This document shows positions 3,418 through 19,220 of a stretch of DNA of 20,000 nt, one piece after another. Position 1 is the stretch's first letter, and every line of letters starts with the position of its first letter. Under the pieces are notes generated by a model. That model was not told the origin of the DNA, ran no database searches, and saw only the letters and a list, made by a program, of their open reading frames with translations. The position numbers and the translations under genes are program-made. Origin of the DNA: Cirrosporium novae-zelandiae (taxonomy: Eukaryota); contig JAPETS010000012.1 of the NCBI GenBank assembly GCA_026023565.1, positions 743,116-763,115 on the forward strand. The letters run 5' to 3'.

Positions 3418-6400
3418 TTACCAGAAAGAACACCAACCGATATAATGCTGGCACAAGTTCTCTGTACTGACAGCCTGCGCGATCAGTTTGTCAACTTGTT
3501 CGCTGACGCTGAGCTTCTCATTCGGTTTGAAATCTCTGCCTGTGAGTTTCTCGCGGACCCTAGCCAACACTTGCAAAGCTCGTTCATTTCTGACTTCGCG
3601 GTTGTCACTGTTGGTGCCGTTTTGAGGATCCAAGGTACCGGGATCAATGACAGACGGGCGACGGCGGCGAAGTGATGAAGGAGACTGTGCACGCTTGAGC
3701 TCACCCACGTCTTCAATAATGGAGGCACGGCGTTCCGAATGAAAGTTAGGACGTGCCGGGGATTCTCGACTGTTGAGACGCCAATTGAGGAGCGGATCAT
3801 GGATGAACTGATTAGAATTACATTAGTAGGTCGTAGATGATCAAGTGGAAGTGGGAACTTACAGCTTCGAGGACAGCCATGACAGATTCCTTGTTTTCCC
3901 TCAACACTCTCATGACGGCTTCACAAGTGATACGATAGCTGCCTTCAATATTACTGACTTCCATAGCATACGTTAACATGCGCGTAAGTCGGAAAGGCAC
4001 ACGCTCAGGATATTTTTCACGATGCATGGCCACTTCGAAGCAGTCACCGAAATCAATGTGAATGATTTTTCCGGTGATACGATCAAGCATCAAGTTGGAA
4101 GGATGACGATCACCAAGTCCAAGAATGTAGCCCACCATCGACATGACAGCCAAGGAGCGAGTGTAATTCGTGCGGCGGTCGAGCCAGGATTCGGAACTCT
4201 TAGATTTGAGCCAGAGAACACGGTATAGATCCTTGCCAGTTGTGTTGTTCATCGCATACGTAAAAACTTCGACCTTTTGCATAAGCGTGAGGTTGTCGTA
4301 GTCAGGAGCCATCTGGAGCATAATACGATGTTCGATATTAAGAAGGATCCGACGTGTTTCACGATATTCTTTGATGAGATTATGGAGGGTATCGCTGTTC
4401 GGGACCCACCCAAGGAGACCAGAATTCTGTGACAGTGGAATAGCCGGGAAACCCTGAATGTTAAGATGGCGCTTAAAGCTCTCGCTATCATTAGTCAACA
4501 GAGTATTGACGAGGCCGAATAATTGCATGACTCGTTCATCTTGGCGAATATCCTCATGACCCTTCAAGGCATAGGTGTATGAATTGCCATCACTCCCCAT
4601 GAGAGCCATCTTCCGAGGGCGTTGTTTGGACTGGATGACCGTAAAGATTGGATCAAAGCTCTGAATGCAAATGATGGGCTTGCCACTCTTGTAGGTACCA
4701 GGAACAGCCAAATCCAAGTCCTTGGCCTCCTTGAGTTTGGGAGAGACGAACTTGAGATCCAGCATCATTAGCTGAGGAAGCTGTCGAGCAATCTTGCGGA
4801 AGACGGTATAGTAAAGATCCCAAGCTTGGTTGAGGTCCCCAGTCTCTCCGGTCTGCTTGTAAAGGTTGCAGAAATGAAGAGCCTCGCTGAGATCACGGCC
4901 AAAGGCTTGAGTAAAGGATATCTCACGAAGAGTTTCCGGGCCCTTTGTAATCATATCATGTAGTGGGGCCAATGTTTCAAACATGCCTTCAATATTATGG
5001 TCACCAAAATACAGTCTGGAAGCTTCTTCAAGCCCTTCATGCCAAAGCTCGTGCCAAAGAACAGCAACGCGGATGAGTTCATGGCTGACAAGATCGGCCT
5101 GCTCGACCAATTTGGAACTGTGCTGTCGCATGCTATCCATGATTTGACCGGCAGAATGAGATCGGCGAGCGACATTTGATTTCATTGCTACAGTCAGCGG
5201 ATACACCAATGCTTGGGGATGGGCTTTTCCAACTTCGGACAAGAGCCTATGGATAGATGAACGGACACGTGCATTGGGTTGGTTGATCCGAGCAATTAAT
5301 TGTGGAATAACTTCCAGCCAAGTATCAATGCTGACGGAAGAGAATCCCTCAGTCACTATGGAATTAACGTCTGCATCTCCTCCATGTGCAAACCAAAGCG
5401 TGAGAAGCCTCAAGGTATCCTGAAGCGAGCTGCTCGAGGACAACGAGATAGATTTGAAGAATCCTGAGATGGCTGGCAAGACGTGATCCAAGATTATTTG
5501 ATGACTCGCTACAGTGGTACTATGCTCTGCTTGAGAGGTAATGTTTGAGACAACTTCAAAGTTCGCAAGAGCCCATGCGTGCCACCCTTTGTAAGACTTC
5601 TCATTATGCTGAGTCGCCTTTTGATATGAATTTAGAATCTCTCGAACATGGACTGGATTCATGTCTCCTTGGTGCATAAACGTCTGCCATTGTCCTTGCT
5701 TGAGATAGCATTTGGCTAGAAGTATCTTGAACTTTTCGGGCTCGTTGATGATGCGCTGATGAGGCGCACCGTCGGCGATATGAGAATCCACAACACCATT
5801 CGAGGCATGTATTTGATTACTGCTATTAACCCCGTTCTGTTGAGCCTGATTGACGATAGCATTATGGGCAGCAAGGTCGTCAGACATTTGACCAGTGAAT
5901 TCCCGAAGATATGAAAGAGCTTCATCTTGATAGCCTGTGGCCCACATGTACTTTAGCTGAGCATAGTTGACTTCTGGTGGAGCAGCACGACTGGAAATGT
6001 CGGTTGCATTATTACTTGTTAGATTAACAAGAGAATTCAAGGACTTTTCAGCTAGACCAATGCGATTCGATTTGCGACAAAGGTTGGCAAATTTGATCCA
6101 CATGTCCAAGTTTTCTAGTGGAGAAACAACCAAGGATCGCACCTTAAGCATACGTTGCCAGACTTCGACATTTTGTTGACAACCAAGGAGACGTTTTGCC
6201 CAAGTTGCTCGCATCATCTCCTGCTTCTCTGTATCACTTGAGTATTGTTTGTATGTGATTATTTCTTCAAGTTCAGCAAGCATTTGAGTTCGAACAACAC
6301 CATTGTATGCACGAGCATACGACTCATTCAGGAGTGCAGAGAGCTCCTTGTTCAAGACAGTGCGAGCCTGTTCAATATGCATAGAGGCCTCTTCGAATTG

Positions 6401-9400
6401 ATTTCGATTTAGTGCAACGATAGCACCAAAGAATGAGCGGTCGGCAGTATTCTCCTTCATCACACTAAGGTAGTTGTCCATCAATTCCCATTGCCCAAGA
6501 CCCCAAGCTGCAGCGGCTGCCAAAGGAGCAATAAGACGACGGTTTTCGACCGATTCTTGGTTCCATTTGTCTTGAGCCAAGTTAGAAAGCACATCCCATT
6601 CGCCGAGAGCGTGAAGGCATCGCATTTTGCCTTTGACAATCTCGAAAGAGTCGGGCTCATCAGCCTCTCTCTTTTGGTAAGCTGCGAGAGCCTCTTCCCA
6701 ACGCTGCAATTTCTCGAACCAGGTTTCTTTAAGCTCGACATCTCGATACATCTGCGCTTTTCTCAAAATGCCAATAGCCGCATCAGTCTGTTGGAGCTGG
6801 TTATTGATGCTGATTAGAGCCTCTACTGCGAGTGAGGTCTGCTCCTGCTCAAACTCTAGCTCCTTGTAGTGGAGTGCTTTCGCCCAGGCGTGACATTTGG
6901 CCGCATGGGCACCCAATACCCGGATATCAATTGGAAGAGCTTTGTCATCGTGCTCCATAAACTCGGCAAGATTTAGCAAGATCTGAAGGATCTCGGGGGG
7001 CATTTCGGGAGATGTGAGGGCCTTTTCAAGGGACGACACCAACTGATCCTGATACTGGTCATAAAGTTCAGTCCAACACGATACAAAGGCGGCATTGAAA
7101 AGGTCTTTCGCCAATGGTTGATAGATACTGGCAAGACTTGCGCAAGCTCGCAGAGCATGAGAAGGTGACTCTTTCAATAGTTCCACACTGAAACGGCGGA
7201 TCCATTCCTGCCAATCTTCTGCCGTCGATTTCTGCGACACCTCCCAGGCGTTTTTGAGATGCTGTTGGTTGACAGGGGGCTTGATTTGATTGACATCGGC
7301 CGAAGCGATATCAAGTGGTTGGTCGGTATAACGCTCCTGGGGACTGAGATCCTGTGGAAGCGAATCGCCTTTTTGCAACTTCGTAACAAGGATCTGATAG
7401 TTCTGATGTGGGATCTGATTCTTTTGTAGAACCTTGTTGATCATGGGGATATAAGGGATAAAATCAGTACCAAACTGAAATATCAGTGCGCAAATACAAT
7501 CAAGTGCAGCTTGTCGCAGGGTACGATCGCTTCCCCCGAGAATCCTTGATAGAGGATGAAGAAGCAAAGAAGCGTGATCAGAAATATTAACTTGCTTCGA
7601 AATCTTGGCAATGGTTTCAATCGCTGATTTTCGAAGTGATACAGGTACATTCTTCTTTTCGGCAAGCCTGATAGTAGGTGGAATCAACAAATGCATATAC
7701 TGCTCCGCACCAGCGCCAAAGACGAGGAAGGCGTGAAGAATTTTCTCAGACGGTATGCGGTTAGGGGTGGTATCTTTATCAAAGACATCAACCATCAGTG
7801 GAACAAAGTCAAGGAGAAATCGCTTGAATTCTCCTTCCAGAGCTTTTGAGATGGATTCAACCAATGACAATATTGTAGACTGCACTTGAGGTGAGACTTC
7901 CCAGTAGTCCCGGACAACTTTCAGGATATCTGGTAGATATTGACGAATATGCACTCGCACTATGGAGACTAAGATCGCAAGTTGATTGAAGTAGGTATCC
8001 AAGCGATTTGGACTAGAATTTCGAATAACGAGTATAAATCCCTCAACAACTTGTTTCAAAAATGGCACACATTTGAGACCTAGAGTCTTGAAGATATTGA
8101 CAATGGCGTCGATGACAGCCGAGTGATATTGGGTCAAGGAATTATCTTTGAGAATATTCTGAATCAAGGTCTGGAAAACCACCGTGGGATAGTATTCTTC
8201 GCTTGAGGGGGTGAGCCCTTGAGTGATGAGAGAAATATCAGAAACATTCTGTTCAGCGGTAGCCTCCCCGTATTCGGGTGCAGTTTCAATGACCTGTTGA
8301 TACTTGTAAGGGTCAAGTGCACCAAGGATTCCAATAAGTTTGATAGTCTCTTGACGTAATGGGCCCGATTCTTCGGTCTTGATGATATTCAGCAATATCG
8401 GAAGCAGCGAGGGATGGTCAAGATAAGGTTCAATAACATATCCAGAGCTGCTACAAATTTGTCCGAGAGCCCGTAATGCAGCAAGTCGTTTAGTATGGGA
8501 GCTTAGGTCAACTAAAGCTTCAATAACGATTGGCATAAGTTGAGGAATGTATTTCCGCATTGCTTCTCCGCCAATTTCAGAGAGTTCACCGATCGCCTTG
8601 ATGGATGTAGAAGCAACTCCAGCGTTGGAGTCAACTGCTTTGGGAAGTAAGATGCTAAGCATAGGATCGACATATGCCTTGATAAGTGTAGTGCCATTGG
8701 CAATGAAATGGCTCAGAAGCTGAGCGTTGTCCTCCTTGACCCTCGTGCTATTCGTATGTTTCAAACCTGTCAAGAGGTTGATTAATAGCTTCCGGAGGGC
8801 GGGAAATACATATGCTGGATTAACAGTTGTCAAGCGGCCAATGATGCTAATAGCAGCTTCTCTCACCGAAAAATCTTCATCGTTTACTGCAAGGAAAAGT
8901 GACCTAATGTTGTCTGGGTGAGCGAGATGGCGGTCGAAACGCGGATCTAAAGACAGAAGAACTGTTCGACGAATCTCAGGGTCAGGATCAGCAAGACATT
9001 GAGCCAAAAGCTTCTCGATGACCTCTCGAACAACCTTCACGGCATTATAACTAGTCTGGTGCACGATAGGATCTCTGATGAAGATTTGGCAGGAAGTAAG
9101 GGCCGCAGCCTTTCTAATTTCTGGGTTGTCGTTGTCAACGTACTTGATCGCAACATCACGAACAAATTCGTTCAGGATATGTCCTGAGAAATCAAAACTC
9201 CCCAATGTGACCAATGCCAATGCAATCTCAGCATCTGAGTGATGGGCGGTGGCACGATTGTAGTCCCGAGCATATGCTGGGAGTGGTGGAACTTTGTCAT
9301 TTGGGCATCCAACAGGTTTGAAAGCAGTACCACAAAGAACAATACTCAACAAATCAAGTAACTTGTCTTGAATTCTAGTCTTGATGGGCGGGATATAGTG

Positions 9401-10745
9401 TGCCATGTCAACAAGCGCCTGAGTTAAAGACTCGCTAAGTCCACAAGCAAACATCGGATCCATGAGTGCTTCCATGTATTTGGTAAGAGTCTGGCCAACG
9501 GCTATCGCAAGCATGCTGATACATTCAAACATTGGGCCTTCATCTGTCAGGCGACCTCGGACCTTCAGGCTAAGTGCCTCTCGGATGTGCACCAAGATAG
9601 AATCAAGGTAAGGGGCAATGGCACTACCTACGGCGCTCGCAATCTTGCCCACCGCAATGAATGCAGAATTTCTCTCTTTATCCTTCTTCAGCAGCCCTTG
9701 GAGGTACACCATAAACTTATGTAGGTAGTTCCCTACAAAGTCAAGAGGGGAATAGGCAGCGAGAATAGGGATCATAGCGACAACTTGTGATCGGATCTTT
9801 GGATCGCGATGCTCTTTGAGTCGTAAGGTGATTTCACAGGCATTGTGATAATGTTCTTGCATGAACATTCCTCCTTTGAGTAAGAGTTCTCTAATAATCA
9901 AGAGAGACCCATGTGTCGCATCGATGTTGTTAGTTTTGAAGCCATTAATTGACTCATCGTACATTCTAAGAAAATAAGCCAATCAGTAGCCATCGAGACT
10001 CTTATCAAAGAATGAGCCTTACCGTGAGAACCATCGTTGTCGTACTTGTGTATCCCGAGCAAGGATAATCTCAAAGCAAGCACTGACCGCTTCTGCCGCA
10101 GTCTCGCGAATCAAAACTTTTGGGTCCCGTACCGCAACCCATATGAGTTCAAGGATAGAGGGAACATGGCCGTAGAGCAAGGTGGGAGCGTTCTTAGCTA
10201 GCTCTCGTATAACCAAGACCGCAGCAAACCGTCGATTTTCTTGGCGATCTGATTGTAGCCATTCCAGTGCAGACTGCGTCTCACTTTCAACCAGCTCAGT
10301 CACGAGTGCCCCTCCAGGTCTTGCAAGGCGGCCGATGGCTCTAGCCGCGTAAACAATAACAGTGTTGTCATTGAACCTCAATGCATGTCTAAGATAGCTC
10401 ACGAATCTTGTCGTTTTCTGAGCGGCGTCGACACCGTCGAAGTCGATGAGGCGATCTAAGGCTTGAATACCGGCGATTTTCTCATTTGGGTCGGTAGAGG
10501 TAACGATGAGCTGAGATATAAATTGAACAGCTTTGTTGTAGTAATCTTGGAATTTATCTGGTGTATAGTCTTCGTATACAGTCAGCAAAGTCCATCTAAA
10601 GTGGATTGAAGGCTCAGAGCTCACCTTTGGATACAAGGTGTATATGCTCTCTGAGCTCATAAGTAGCTTTCAGGCGGATCTCTTCATTTCGGGAACGTAG
10701 ATCACCGAAAATTCGTTGCAGCTCAGACTGCGTCGCTGACGCCAT
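3418..10745 (-). CDS. tor: Serine/threonine-protein kinase TOR (PIKK family), ~2386 aa; exons 10745-10625, 10569-10023, 9965-3863, 3807-3418
   Basis: HEAT repeats, FAT domain, FRB domain (LWHELWHEGLEEASRLYF..DLNQAWDLYYTVFRKI, rapamycin-binding Ser retained), kinase motifs (LKGHEDIRQDERVMQLF, GLGDRHPSN, IDFGDCF) and FATC end (LCQHYIGWCSFW*). Introns 10624-10570 (GTGAGC..CTGAC..AAG), 10022-9966 (GTAAGG..CTGAT..TAG), 3862-3808 (GTAAGT..CTAAT..CAG); spliced length 7161 nt, in frame. An alternative in-frame ATG lies at 10922. Confidence 0.98.
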
Positions 10746-11429
10746 AATGGAATCTTTCCATATGGCGGGCGCGTCAGTTGGCCTTTGGAGAATAAAAGAT
10801 GAAGGATAAGGAGAGTTGACGTAAGGTAGTTGAGGTGCTTGTTGTTGAGCAGCTTGTAAGGCCTCGGCGAATTCAAGTTCACTTGGCTCGTCGAATTCGA
10901 AGAGACCTTGCTCAGGTTCCATAATTGCTTAGGCTGCCAAATGGTTGGTGAATTGTGGCTGGGACGGAGATTATATTCGCCGATTGGCTGTCTTCATTTT
11001 TGGCTTGAAGGTGGGTTGATGTTGTGGCGGTGCATGTGTGGCGTGTGTGAATTTGATTCACAGGTCTTTGACTCGCTCTAAGCGCGCGTCAATTTGCTAT
11101 CAAGTTTTCTTTTAAGCACGTATCTAGACCTGTACCCGGCATTGTACGGCTCTATATTTTCCAACTTCTTAGTTCAAGTATGCGATACAATATGACATGT
11201 CTAAGTCTTATAATAATGCTCCTCTACGCTTTGTCGCCCGCTAATGCTAAGAAAATATGCTGACTTCGGCGCCAAAAAGGTTAACGAAGATAAGCCAGCA
11301 CGTGGCCAGTAGTTAAAGGCGAATATATCTATATCATCAGTGACTCAAAAAGGCGGGGGATAATAGATTACTACATAGTTAAGGGATATTTCACAAATCT
11401 TGCCTCCCTAGCTGTTAAGGTCTCTAAGA

Positions 11430-12536: not shown

Positions 12537-13931
12537 TTAGAACTTTGATGCAAAGTCTGTCTGGTCCAAGGTGCTCTTCCGACTAGGTGGATACCTAGAT
12601 GCGAAGTCTTGCCCATCCATGGTGCTCTTCCTGCTTGGAGGCAGGTGAATTGCCTCTCTAGAGTACCTCCTGCCATTGCTGTTGAGGTTCTCCTGGTTCT
12701 TTTTACTCATCGAATATCGTTTGATGTTGCCATTACTGGTGATCTTGCCATTTGATTCCATGCTGATCTGGACTCTGTTTATGACCTCGGCAACCCTATC
12801 GTGCAATGGATGGTCTTTCTCTAACCCGCAAACTTCCTCTGCAATCTCATCTGGATTTTGCGTCTCCAGCTTCTTTGCAAGCTCAAAGCTCTCATCATCG
12901 CCTTCCACGTTCTGGAATCGGAATCCCATTTCAATGCAGCCCAGTAAGTACTCGCATTGTAAGCCCATTTCTGCCAATTGAGCAGCTGGTGCTACAAATC
13001 GCTCCCTCCTTGAGAGCTTTCTCATTGGTTCTCGACCAACTCGAGGGATCATGTCTGCAAGGTAGGGATTGGAGATACGAGTAATGATCTTATCGATGTA
13101 TGTGTTTTGATCTTCTGCGGTGATGCCAAATTTATTGACAATGAGATGTGCCGTCTCCTCTACCGCTTTGCGGATCAGTTCACGAAGTTCGAAAAGCTCA
13201 AGAACTTGATGAACCACCGTAAACCCTCTCACATGGCCGTAATATGCTGCCGCAGTGTGGCTGGTATTGACAGTAAAGAGCTTGCGCTCAATGAAGGGTG
13301 CTAGATCATCAACCCACTTGACAGCATCGATCTTTGGGTGGCCAAATGGCTCGAAAGGAGGTGCCTCGACAACCCATTCGTAGAAGGCCTCGATTTGCAC
13401 ATCGAGACCCTGGTCCGAACCTTGGGCTGGGACAATACGGTCAATTGCTGAGTTGGCAAAACGAGCTCGTTCATGAATCGACGTCACTCGTTGTGCTGAG
13501 ATGTCTTTGGTGTAGAAATCCTTGATAAAGCCAGCCAAGGTATCTGTGGCATTGATTGCGTTCTCGCATGCAATGACGGCCAATGGGACTTGGGCTGTGC
13601 GCTTATCGATACCCTTAGCAATGAGTGGAGCAATGAACTTCAAGATTCTTGGTCCCACTGCGCAGGTGACGACGGCAGCTTTGGAGATCTCTTCAATCAC
13701 ATCATTCTCGTGCGTCTTGGAATTTAAAGCACGGTAGTTTGTGATTGTTTTGACATCCTCGCCTTCGGAGCTAATTTCAATGACCCGGTAGCTTTTGGTG
13801 CTGTTCAGATCGTCAATGACCTTGTCAACGACATCGACGAAGACGACCTCAAATCCAGAGAGATGGAGAAACTCTGCAACAAACCCCCGGCCGATGTTGC
13901 CACCTCCGAACTGAACAGCTATAGGTGCCAT
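12537..13931 (-). CDS. mpdA: Mannitol-1-phosphate 5-dehydrogenase (M1PDH), 464 aa, intronless, with a 76-aa C-terminal extension
   Basis: Starts [22 protein letters not shown] (Rossmann fold); [36 protein letters not shown] (catalytic Lys region) and [16 protein letters not shown] are typical of fungal MpdA/bacterial MtlD. First ATG at 13931 (the ORF track starts at an upstream GTG). Confidence 0.95.
12540..12641 (-). repeat. Coding tandem duplication, 2 x 51 nt ([17 protein letters not shown] / [17 protein letters not shown])
   Basis: Copy 1 12641-12591, copy 2 12590-12540; 12 of 17 aa identical. Confidence 0.92.
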
Positions 13932-14059
13932 TCTGGGTGTTTCTGTGGAAGAGAGAATGGACAAAGATGCGGTGACTCGGTAGATAAATGGCCTATCCAC
14001 CCAATGACCGAACAGCTTCTGTCGAAGTTGTAGTTGTATACCGATGAAAGTGTAGAGGG

Positions 14060-14165
14060 TTAAGAGGAAGAGGGTGGATGGATGGATGGATGGGTGTAGT
14101 TAAGGGGAAGAAGGGGAAGTAAAAGGTTGACGAAAGGGAAAGAGAAAGGAAAAAAGAGGAAGAAG
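14060..14165 (-). promoter_or_regulatory. Pyrimidine-rich (CT-box) core promoter/5' leader tract of M1PDH
   Basis: Long purine-rich run on the plus strand (CT-rich on minus) 130-235 bp upstream of the ATG, typical of filamentous-fungal core promoters; includes a (GGAT)n run. Confidence 0.5.
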
Positions 14166-14747: not shown

Positions 14748-14805
14748 TAGGATGATTTTCCAGGATGATTTTCCAGGATGATTTTCCAGGATGATTTTCT
14801 AGGAT
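14748..14805. repeat. 13-bp minisatellite (YAGGATGATTTTC) x ~4.5
   Basis: Units at 14748, 14761, 14774, 14787 and a partial unit at 14800-14805. Confidence 0.95.
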
Positions 14806-16104: not shown

Positions 16105-17087
16105 TTAGAGTCTGCCTTCTTTTCCATCCCGCACATATGTCTTTCGTTTCTTTCGTCCAGCACAGCAGTCCAAGACCCAGCCCATAGCTGCTATTAGCAT
16201 CAAAGCCGTGGCGGCCCAAGTCATACCGAGGAACTTGTTCCCCTTGGTAGCTGAGATGCTAATGTCATCGCCATACTTGTTAACGGCATCCACCACCTTG
16301 ACTACCACGACCGTGACAATCGCCGAAGCAATGCCCAAACCTAAGAATGCGATCTGGAATATGCGTTAGATTATGGTCTTAGAAGTCAGGTCATATTCTC
16401 AGTTGCTGGAACTTACCAGAGCAAGAATGAAGTTAACAAAAGCAATCAAACGCCCATCTATAATCACTGCCGCAATACTTGCGAGCACAGATATTCCTGC
16501 CGCCGCGATTCCAATGCAATAGAGCACAAAGAGTGCTTTTGAAGCTGTCTTGACGTCTTGGATTTTGTCATCAATATCATCTGGCCAGTCCAGATCTGTC
16601 AGATTTATTCCAGACGTCAACTCCGAGCTAAGAATATCACTGGGGTCGAAATGATAGAAGGCCGTCGTGTTGGAGCATTTGGTCACATTCTTATGGCTGT
16701 CCTTGACGGTCGCGTTTGGTTCGAAGTAGCCTTCGCAATAATCAAGCAGATGGGCACTATAAAAATCATGGATGCCAAGCTCCGCTGTAATGTCATCCAC
16801 CACATCATTAATTTCATCAGTTATAGCATCGCCGATCGCAGATGTGATTGAGGACAAAAGACCGTCGGATGATGAGTTACTTGAGTTACTCGATACATGT
16901 CCGAGCATCGACACATTAAGCTATCAAGGTCAGTGTTTCTAGCTTGCTCATAGGGAGGAAGACCACTAACAGTCAACAGATCACCATTCTCGATAAAATT
17001 GCGCTTCGAACCAGCGAACAAGCAGAGCATAGAAAGAATAAACGCTGCTACGGCACAAAGAAGTGGGAAAATTGCAATCAACCTCAT
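16105..17087 (-). CDS. SUR7/PalI-family (Pun1-like) plasma-membrane protein, ~289 aa; exons 17087-16971, 16920-16417, 16353-16105
   Basis: N-terminal TM helix ending LCLFAG; large extracellular loop with the claudin-like motif GIHDFYSAHLLDYCEG, a second Cys (VTKCS) and N-glycosylation sequons; three further TM helices, 'GNKFLGMTWAA', then DCC and a basic tail. Introns 16970-16921 (GTTAGT..CTGAC..TAG) and 16416-16354 (GTAAGT..CTAAC..CAG), both phase 0. Confidence 0.9.
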
Positions 17088-18253: not shown

Positions 18254-19220
18254 TCACAGCTTGGAATCCACCCATTTGGGCTTCCTCTTTTCTACGAATG
18301 CACGTATGCCCTCCTTCATATTCTCACCAGCCTGTAGTCGCACATACCAATCATTTTGAAGCAATTGAGTCCCTTCGTCTGCCCCAACTCCCTCCCAACC
18401 TAGCTTAACCCCCTCTCTACTCACGATGACAGCATCAGGGCTATTCGCGGCAACCAGATCAGCCATATCCACAGCCGCCTTGACGACATCCTCTCCCTCC
18501 CCAACAATCCTATTAACAAACCCCCACTCCATGGCCTCTTGCGCCTTGACGCTCCTCCCCGTCAACGCCATCTCCATGGCCCTTTGCTTTCCAACCGTCC
18601 TCACAAGTCTAGGAAGCGCACCCGCAATGGCCACCACTCCGATCTTAACCTCTGAAAACGCAAACGTCGCCGTCGAACTCGCAATCACCATATCGGAATT
18701 AACCACAATCTCGCAACCACCCCCATAGGCAATGCCATTCACAGCAGCAATAACCGGCTTCTTCCCACCACGTCTGGAGAGGCCTCCAAAACCCGACGCG
18801 GGCATCGGTCGTGTATTCGAAGATCGATTCTGAGCATCCCATTCTATTATTCCCGAAAGAGAAAAACAAAAGTCAGTATTCGCAACTCCATCTCGTCATC
18901 ATGTCCCACAAAACTACAATTCCAAAAAAAAAAAACCGAAGAGCAAGAGAAAAAGAGAAATCACAATTGTACAAACCTTTCAAATCCGCCCCCGCACAAA
19001 ACGCGCGCCCCGCACCCGTGACTATCCCCACCCGCAGACTCGGCTCGGCATCCATCCATGTCCAGAGCGCATCGAGCTCATAGTGACCCTGAATATTAAT
19101 GCAATTGAACGATGACGGGCGGTTTAGAGTCGCAAGCAATATATGGGGTTTGGGGAAGGAGACCGTGACGTAGGTTTGTGGTGGTGGTGGGGTTTGAGTG
19201 GAGGGGGAGGTGGAAGACAT
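18254..19220 (-). CDS. Peroxisomal enoyl-CoA hydratase/isomerase (crotonase family, CaiD/SidH-like), ~277 aa; exons 19220-18977, 18843-18254
   Basis: Crotonase motifs TLNRP, RAFCAGADLKE, KPVIAAVNGIAYGGGCE, FSEVKIG (both catalytic-position Glu present), AFVEKRKPKW; C-terminal PTS1 -SKL. Intron 18976-18844 (GTTTGT..CTGAC..TAG, 133 nt) restores the frame (834 nt). Confidence 0.93.

Follow-up and report, generated by a model that had tools for sequence, protein, structure and literature searches.

Described systems

Mannitol is a main storage and stress polyol in filamentous ascomycetes and lichen fungi, and mannitol-1-phosphate 5-dehydrogenase (M1PDH) catalyzes the committed step of its synthesis. 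Disordered extensions at protein ends that carry kinase sites are well known. Freitag et al. reportedly described, in 2012, cryptic PTS1 isoforms of fungal sugar-metabolism enzymes that arise via splicing or read-through. These resemble the tail described here in being a C-terminal addition on a normally cytosolic enzyme with a PTS1-like end, but they are reported to be short and conditional, whereas our tail is 76 aa long, is a constitutive part of the genomic frame and has a weak SKF at its end. Fungal MpdA and bacterial MtlD, the family of the enzyme itself, have in common with it a two-domain core, a nucleotide-binding motif and three phosphate-binding arginines, and differ from it by its extra tail of 76 residues.

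A functional comparison is offered by the yeast trehalase Nth1, which is activated by PKA sites and 14-3-3 (PMC9523730). Like the enzyme described here, Nth1 works in storage-carbohydrate metabolism and bears paired PKA-type sites on a terminal segment that lies beyond its catalytic domain. There is no homology between the two: the segment of Nth1 is N-terminal and experimentally proven, whereas ours is C-terminal, partly tandem-duplicated and putative, and the analogy is functional only. Among the titles and abstracts found, with few subscription papers covered, none reports that a fungal M1PDH has a C-terminal extension, is phosphorylated directly or is sent to peroxisomes.

Gene and enzyme core

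The gene lies in a 20,000-nucleotide window of the Cirrosporium novae-zelandiae genome (the window is the whole stretch of DNA analyzed here). It is intron-less and has the following layout.

13931-12537, minus strand: M1PDH gene (mannitol-1-phosphate 5-dehydrogenase), uninterrupted ORF of 464 aa
12768..13931, minus strand: M1PDH core, residues 1-388, no intron, with the GxGNIG fold start
12540..12767, minus strand: in-frame C-terminal tail of 76 aa, basic, hydrophilic, predicted disordered from residue 400
12537..12539, minus strand: TAA stop, followed by sequence that scores non-coding
12382-12377 and 12346-12341, minus strand: two AATAAA hexamers, ~155 and 190 nt past the stop, candidate poly(A) signals

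The core ends in VINRVQ (residues 383-388 of the ORF) and contains two Pfam domains, the Rossmann domain PF01232 (E 2.9e-47) and the C-terminal helical domain PF08125 (E 1.5e-30). The closest solved structures are the M1PDHs PDB 3h2z (E 5e-69) and 5jnm (E 5e-61); mannitol 2-dehydrogenase matches more weakly than both chains (E 9e-12), which places the enzyme closer to M1PDH. Ascomycete M1PDHs are ~60-64% identical to it. Residues K217, N222, R300, R304 and R311 are all kept in the core, K217 and N222 being the invariant Lys and Asn of the RKLFTVN motif, which we take to have a catalytic role. The net charge of the core is -16 (rank 7 of 90), which is acidic, though not uniquely so. In Staphylococcus aureus M1PDH, R283, R287 and R294 bind the substrate phosphate (PMC6623548); by alignment to the structure chain they correspond to R300, R304 and R311 here, with the numbering offset inferred. 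The core also retains 150 of 160 conserved columns (>=85%). These columns and the three phosphate-binding arginines suggest that the enzyme is probably active, which for this family would mean NADH-dependent reduction of fructose 6-phosphate, and judged by its domains and residues it is an ordinary member of the MpdA/MtlD family.

M1PDH appears to be single-copy. No second, tail-less M1PDH paralogue was seen in genome searches that give lower bounds. The genome search with PF01232 (G000) found the M1PDH gene alone and no long-chain mannitol 2-dehydrogenase, again as lower bounds, since spliced genes can escape.

Layout of the tail

The preliminary description of this DNA had placed an ORF running 76 codons past the core end at about residue 388, and this proved exact (13931-12537 for the ORF, 12767-12540 for the tail). 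It had seen no intron signals in the tail, and the GT dinucleotides there indeed stand without canonical donor context. The tail is identical letter for letter in a Logan contig of the probable source run (depth 367, no indel), a non-independent sample, which argues against an assembly slip. The missing canonical donor and the identical contig led us to reject an intron or an assembly error behind the tail. Genome-wide stop loss was also rejected, as both neighboring genes checked end normally (WCSFW in the TOR-like gene, SKL in the hydratase). Two other sequencing runs (X2, X3) hold short core-like pieces less than 90% alike, and the tail sequence is absent from them.

The tail has a pI of 10.2 and a GRAVY of -1.29. 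Apart from the kinase-type sites and the terminal tripeptide, which are listed below, its parts are as follows.

12711..12770, minus strand: SNG-rich tail start, residues 388-407, with a weak likeness to glucose-6-phosphate isomerase
12641-12591, minus strand: 17-codon module copy 1, residues 431-447, holding the RKST of site 3
12590-12540, minus strand: 17-codon module copy 2, residues 448-464, holding the RKST of site 4

The two 51-nt module copies show 15 nucleotide differences over 17 codons. Codon by codon, comparison reproduced exactly the classes reported before: five identical, seven synonymous (P, P, S, R, D, F, S), and the replacements M/L, R/K, Y/F, G/Q and Q/T. An earlier motif pair had been given as SNG..[KR]RYS. 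The repeat is present, but this pattern fits the first copy alone, as the pair reads SNG-NI-KRYS and SNG-RRYS, the second copy lacking the two-residue spacer.

Coding and constraint

By the Nei-Gojobori method, the module copies differ at 8 of 10.5 synonymous and 7 of 40.5 non-synonymous sites (pS 0.76, pN 0.17). The synonymous excess has a Fisher p of 3.3e-4, and of 0.005 when three more upstream codons are included, which guards against the choice of boundary. When 15 changes were placed at random with no stop allowed, the probability of at least 12 identical residues was 0.002-0.012, depending on the transition share. We note that the reading frame of the module is set by the enzyme and was not picked among six. 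As an empirical control, all six frames were searched for the duplication signature, first in the window and 40 loci of 10 kb each (420 kb) and then in 40 more loci (400 kb). The first 420 kb contained seven clusters at four loci, all in or opposite coding repeat frames: long coding frames at L018 and L040 (one cluster on the opposite strand), shadow frames at L029, and the M1PDH tail. The L029 clusters are shadow frames of a repeat-protein frame that is ankyrin-like by eye. The further 40 loci (400 kb) contained none.

The coding score was taken from an order 3 codon-position model applied leave-one-locus-out. The tail scores 0.041, compared with means of 0.040 for coding and -0.023 for non-coding sequence, and the 228 nt 3' of the stop score -0.037. 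Only 6 of 1094 non-coding windows score as high as the tail or higher. The other two frames of the tail score 0.010 and 0.022, above the non-coding mean, so part of the coding score reflects base composition. A two-fold version of the model was noisier (0.004 and 0.045).

These numbers bear on the possibility that the tail is a neutral read-through of a lost stop, or lies outside the mRNA. Non-coding starts remain open for 76 codons in 70 of 4452 cases (1.6%), 20 of 553 stop-free non-coding runs (3.6%) score as high as the tail does, and the tail occurs in no homologue, all of which would fit. Such an origin would, however, need an open frame, a coding composition, a synonymous-biased in-frame repeat and a motif cluster, all by chance. 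There is also no splice donor, and UTR-like AATAAA sequence starts only past the TAA at 12537. We regard this explanation as quite improbable.

The preliminary description had further read the tail as a translated sequence subject to purifying selection. The within-genome statistics favor this view indirectly, but a captured gene end would leave the same codon signature. We infer translation and present-day selection from one genome, and we consider it likely that both apply to the tail.

The structure was modeled with AlphaFold2 from a 90-row alignment. The core is confident, its last helix reaches about residue 400, and pLDDT is below 50 for residues 400-464. The homologues in the alignment give the tail no depth, so the low pLDDT can be taken only as consistent with disorder, and the tail is predicted to be disordered.

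Homologues and other M1PDH tails

Homologue lengths were taken from the best 120 of 7442 matches (119 homologues and the query). In this set 115 of the 119 homologues are 386-402 aa long and the other four are N-terminally longer; the nearest homologue, ~64% identical, is without the tail. The tail is thus not common among these homologues. A search for homologues longer than 413 aa gave 64 besides the query among the matches listed, and 25 of these 65 long rows have at least 30 extra C-terminal residues. Six of the 25 are merges or fusions of more than 500 aa. Among the other 19, several resemble retained introns and three form a divergent clade; the motif [RK][RK]x[ST] is found in none of 18 of these rows and once in the remaining one.

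The divergent clade (P0168, P0169, P0175) has ~40% core identity to the window enzyme and sits on a separate long branch. Like the window enzyme, its members have an M1PDH core followed at the C-terminus by some 100 aa of low-complexity tail (98-114 aa, rich in R, G, P and S). The tails of P0168 and P0169 align with each other, and by this alignment M1PDH tails include a second kind, which is conserved. The window tail is unlike that of P0169, and the three clade members hold 0, 0 and 1 basophilic sites, which points to an independent origin. The tail had also been called undescribed. This agrees with the titles and abstracts found, although C-terminal tails on M1PDH as such are not unique, given the unrelated ones of this clade.

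A homologue search with the tail alone, as proposed earlier, found no homologue among protein representatives, in the genome itself or in metagenomes. A search with the tail region recovered the query alone among 15 candidates. Against its own genome, the tail matches only the M1PDH locus, with no second copy. A Pfam scan of the tail found no family at E up to 10, and the ESM Atlas search with the tail gave no usable feature match (structure TM <=0.39). A metagenome scan returned one relative (L044), which is 49% identical and has a short, unrelated end. When the tail was run with phmmer against 1.84 billion representatives, six weak matches appeared (E 1.7e-5 to 8e-4), each summing 4-11 stretches; the two that were checked proved to be DUF5122 propellers, and P0186 a proline-rich repeat. 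An assignment of the tail to the DUF5122 (PF17164) beta-propeller repeat was rejected, as the tail has no Pfam match at E up to 10 and the hits are weak summed stretches.

In a quick tree of 70 selected rows, the query's branch is long (0.59) and groups with proteins of Agyrium, Heterodermia, Teloschistales, Lepraria and Alectoria (SH-aLRT 94). By this placement the host would likely be a Lecanoromycete-like ascomycete. In our best explanation, set out below, the tail would be peculiar to the Cirrosporium novae-zelandiae lineage.

Possible capture of a gene end

The tail could be the captured 3' end of another gene, with a synonymous excess that dates from selection in the donor. Nearly saturated synonymous sites mark the duplication as old, and the transition from core to tail is abrupt; both would suit a capture. 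A further point in its favor is a likeness to glucose-6-phosphate isomerase, the enzyme that makes the substrate of M1PDH.

12770-12711 of the window, minus strand, against L082:7755-7817: match to a conserved isomerase motif

Here Q388 and the first 20 residues of the tail agree with the genome's own isomerase motif at 12 of 21 positions, 7 of them consecutive (shuffle P 3e-4, against that one exon). However, two other frames among 440 equal or beat this likeness, one serine that the tail has in common with the isomerase motif is encoded from the other codon family, and weak, unrelated beta-propeller matches fall on this part of the tail as well. The likeness is probably due to chance, and these three grounds led us to set aside an origin of the tail start in glucose-6-phosphate isomerase. 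In addition, no second genome copy and no donor family were found. A capture from any gene therefore seems improbable to us.

Kinase-type sites in the tail

The tail contains four [RK][RK]x[ST] sites of the PKA/Sch9 type, at S407, S424, T437 and T454.

12711..12722, minus strand: basophilic site 1, KRYS (S407), then Met
12660..12671, minus strand: basophilic site 2, RRYS (S424), 17 residues past site 1
12632-12621, minus strand: basophilic site 3, RKST (T437), in module copy 1
12581-12570, minus strand: basophilic site 4, RKST (T454), in module copy 2

The sites form two pairs with a spacing of 17 residues in each, and a hydrophobic residue follows three of the four. Three are strict R[RK]x[ST] sites and one is a K-variant, in the region predicted to be disordered. 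The preliminary description had proposed a regulatory or targeting module; these sites, together with the terminal SKF, would give that proposal a more specific form. The strict form, matched by three of the four, is the yeast PKA consensus and is thought to be common to Sch9 (PMC8961621). Conservation of these sites is seen between the two internal module copies; no orthologous tail was found for comparison.

The kinase motif was chosen after sequence inspection. Shuffling gave P values of 6e-4 for four sites and 3e-3 with one repeat copy removed. Windows of 76 aa from the long frames of the genome never reached four sites (0 of 1098 in all, 0 of 266 with low hydrophobicity, 0 of 77 matched in composition), and three sites were found in 2 of the 77 matched windows. 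With one repeat copy dropped, the tail is left with a strict count of 2, which 10 of 1098 windows and 5 of the 77 matched ones also reach, and a loose count of 3, which 2 of the 77 reach. The broader pattern Rxx[ST] is not enriched in the tail (P 0.17).

Our best explanation, held tentatively and just short of an even chance, is a lineage-specific phospho-regulatory tail that places mannitol synthesis under AGC-kinase control. The M1PDH gene would yield an ordinary enzyme with a real, translated, disordered tail of 76 aa. An ancestral stop was probably lost or replaced, the tail would have grown through at least one old tandem duplication, and its short motifs would have been kept by selection. 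The kinase acting on S407, S424, T437 and T454 would most likely be PKA or another AGC kinase related to it, for example Sch9. The added phosphates would neutralize the basic tail, which could then bind a 14-3-3 dimer or make contact with the phosphate pocket and its arginines. As a result, the activity, stability or location of the mannitol step may be tuned to nutrient signals. Phosphorylation, the kinase responsible and any consequence for the enzyme are predictions.

Support for control by a kinase comes from the synonymous excess, the coding score, the missing splice donor, the predicted disorder and the motif density, taken together. The duplicated unit contains one kinase-type site, and the internal copy keeps its residues though it cannot serve as a C-terminal signal. 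Nth1 provides a precedent for PKA sites acting with 14-3-3. The case is weakened by its dependence on one genome, by the post hoc motif, by the lack of enrichment of Rxx[ST] and by the fact that predicted PKA motifs are often unphosphorylated, as are two of four in Atg24 (PMC7773993). It is also weakened by a core that is not uniquely acidic, and by the conserved D-x-x-DFAS half of the module, which PKA does not explain. A more specific version, in which a switch arose from scratch and the two 17-spaced PKA/Sch9 pairs gate activity via 14-3-3 or the phosphate pocket, perhaps with control over the exposure of SKF, appears less likely than not.

The tail may instead be translated and mildly constrained as a generic basic, hydrophilic disordered segment that serves solubility, condensates, desiccation or turnover, with incidental kinase motifs. 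Its low GRAVY and high pI would suit such a segment, and so would the unrelated M1PDH clade with R/G/P/S-rich tails and almost no motifs. However, selection on composition only would not hold 12 of 17 residues while synonymous sites saturate, and the motif density is above that of composition-matched controls. We consider a generic segment rather unlikely.

If the proposed kinase switch is real, fungal M1PDH would be regulated post-translationally in a way that is absent from the titles and abstracts found, and the tail would show cleanly how stop loss and tandem duplication can give rise to a regulatory module. A natural tailed variant of a single-copy gene allows one to ask whether PKA/TOR wires mannitol synthesis as it does trehalose breakdown, and the tail would lend itself to studying how new regulatory sequence appears at the end of a protein. 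An inert tail would be a lineage-specific curiosity on an ordinary enzyme.

Terminal SKF and peroxisomal signals

The last three residues raise the possibility of peroxisomal import.

12540..12548, minus strand: terminal tripeptide SKF, a context-dependent PTS1 variant

The tail may be a flexible linker that shows SKF as a weak PTS1, giving an enzyme with a dual location in cytosol and peroxisome; this would be compatible with phosphorylation. A PTS1 takes about 12 residues, and the tail is 76 residues long. SKF fails the canonical pattern [SAC][KRH][LM] and is found at 0 of 235 frame ends in the sampled genome, where 6 match the strict pattern; many of these ends are not true C-termini. The residues immediately upstream of SKF are acidic, which also speaks against import. 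The internal module copy conserves DFAS-[RK]-[YF] without a C-terminal role; this constraint makes a PTS1 alone insufficient. In favor of import, the genome encodes Pex5 (L045:553-2340), and PTS1-like ends (SKL, SKI, SKV, SKA, PRI, PRM) occur in 6 of 50 homologue clusters formed at 80% identity, where shuffling of the last 8 residues predicts 1.0. This loose pattern is post hoc, and strict ends occur in 1 of the 50 clusters. As a non-canonical tripeptide that works in some contexts, SKF imported yeast Mdh3 but not luciferase (PMC12316961, citing Kragler and Elgersma), and it is among the peroxisomal signals screened in PMC4882508. Taken together, we find a targeting tail unlikely.

Two further observations concern the ends of other M1PDHs. 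Penicillium-type enzymes (P0030, P0021, P0131, P0147, P0110, P0125, P0129, P0144) occur as 388-aa forms ending in Lys and as 395-aa forms ending in PRI, PRM or PHI, and some predicted forms carry an apparent retained intron between the two ends. At the protein level this suggests alternative splicing at the core end, possibly with a cryptic peroxisomal isoform; no such splice variation was found in literature titles and abstracts. In P0162 (Xylona heveae), SSRL follows directly after the core and precedes a gene-model extension, and the unspliced form might end in the PTS1 SRL.

Neighborhood of the gene

Directly downstream of M1PDH, on the minus strand at ~3500-10922 of the window, lies what we take to be a TOR-like kinase gene, ending in WCSFW. 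An enoyl-CoA hydratase/isomerase gene (18254-19220, minus strand) ends in the canonical peroxisomal SKL. A SUR7/PalI gene (16399-17087) lies upstream of M1PDH on the same minus strand. Three Teloschistales-type proteins (P0014, P0037, P0077) are merged models of SUR7 and M1PDH, which suggests that the adjacency of the two genes is conserved and that the fusion models are prediction errors. Between the SUR7 gene and the M1PDH start, ~820 nt upstream of the latter, a 13-bp unit is repeated 4.4 times at 97% identity (14749-14805); it could be an array of promoter elements. The M1PDH frame is also open for 56 codons upstream of the ATG (13932-14099, minus strand), 520 codons in total, and this stretch is pyrimidine-rich and leader-like, a candidate extension only.
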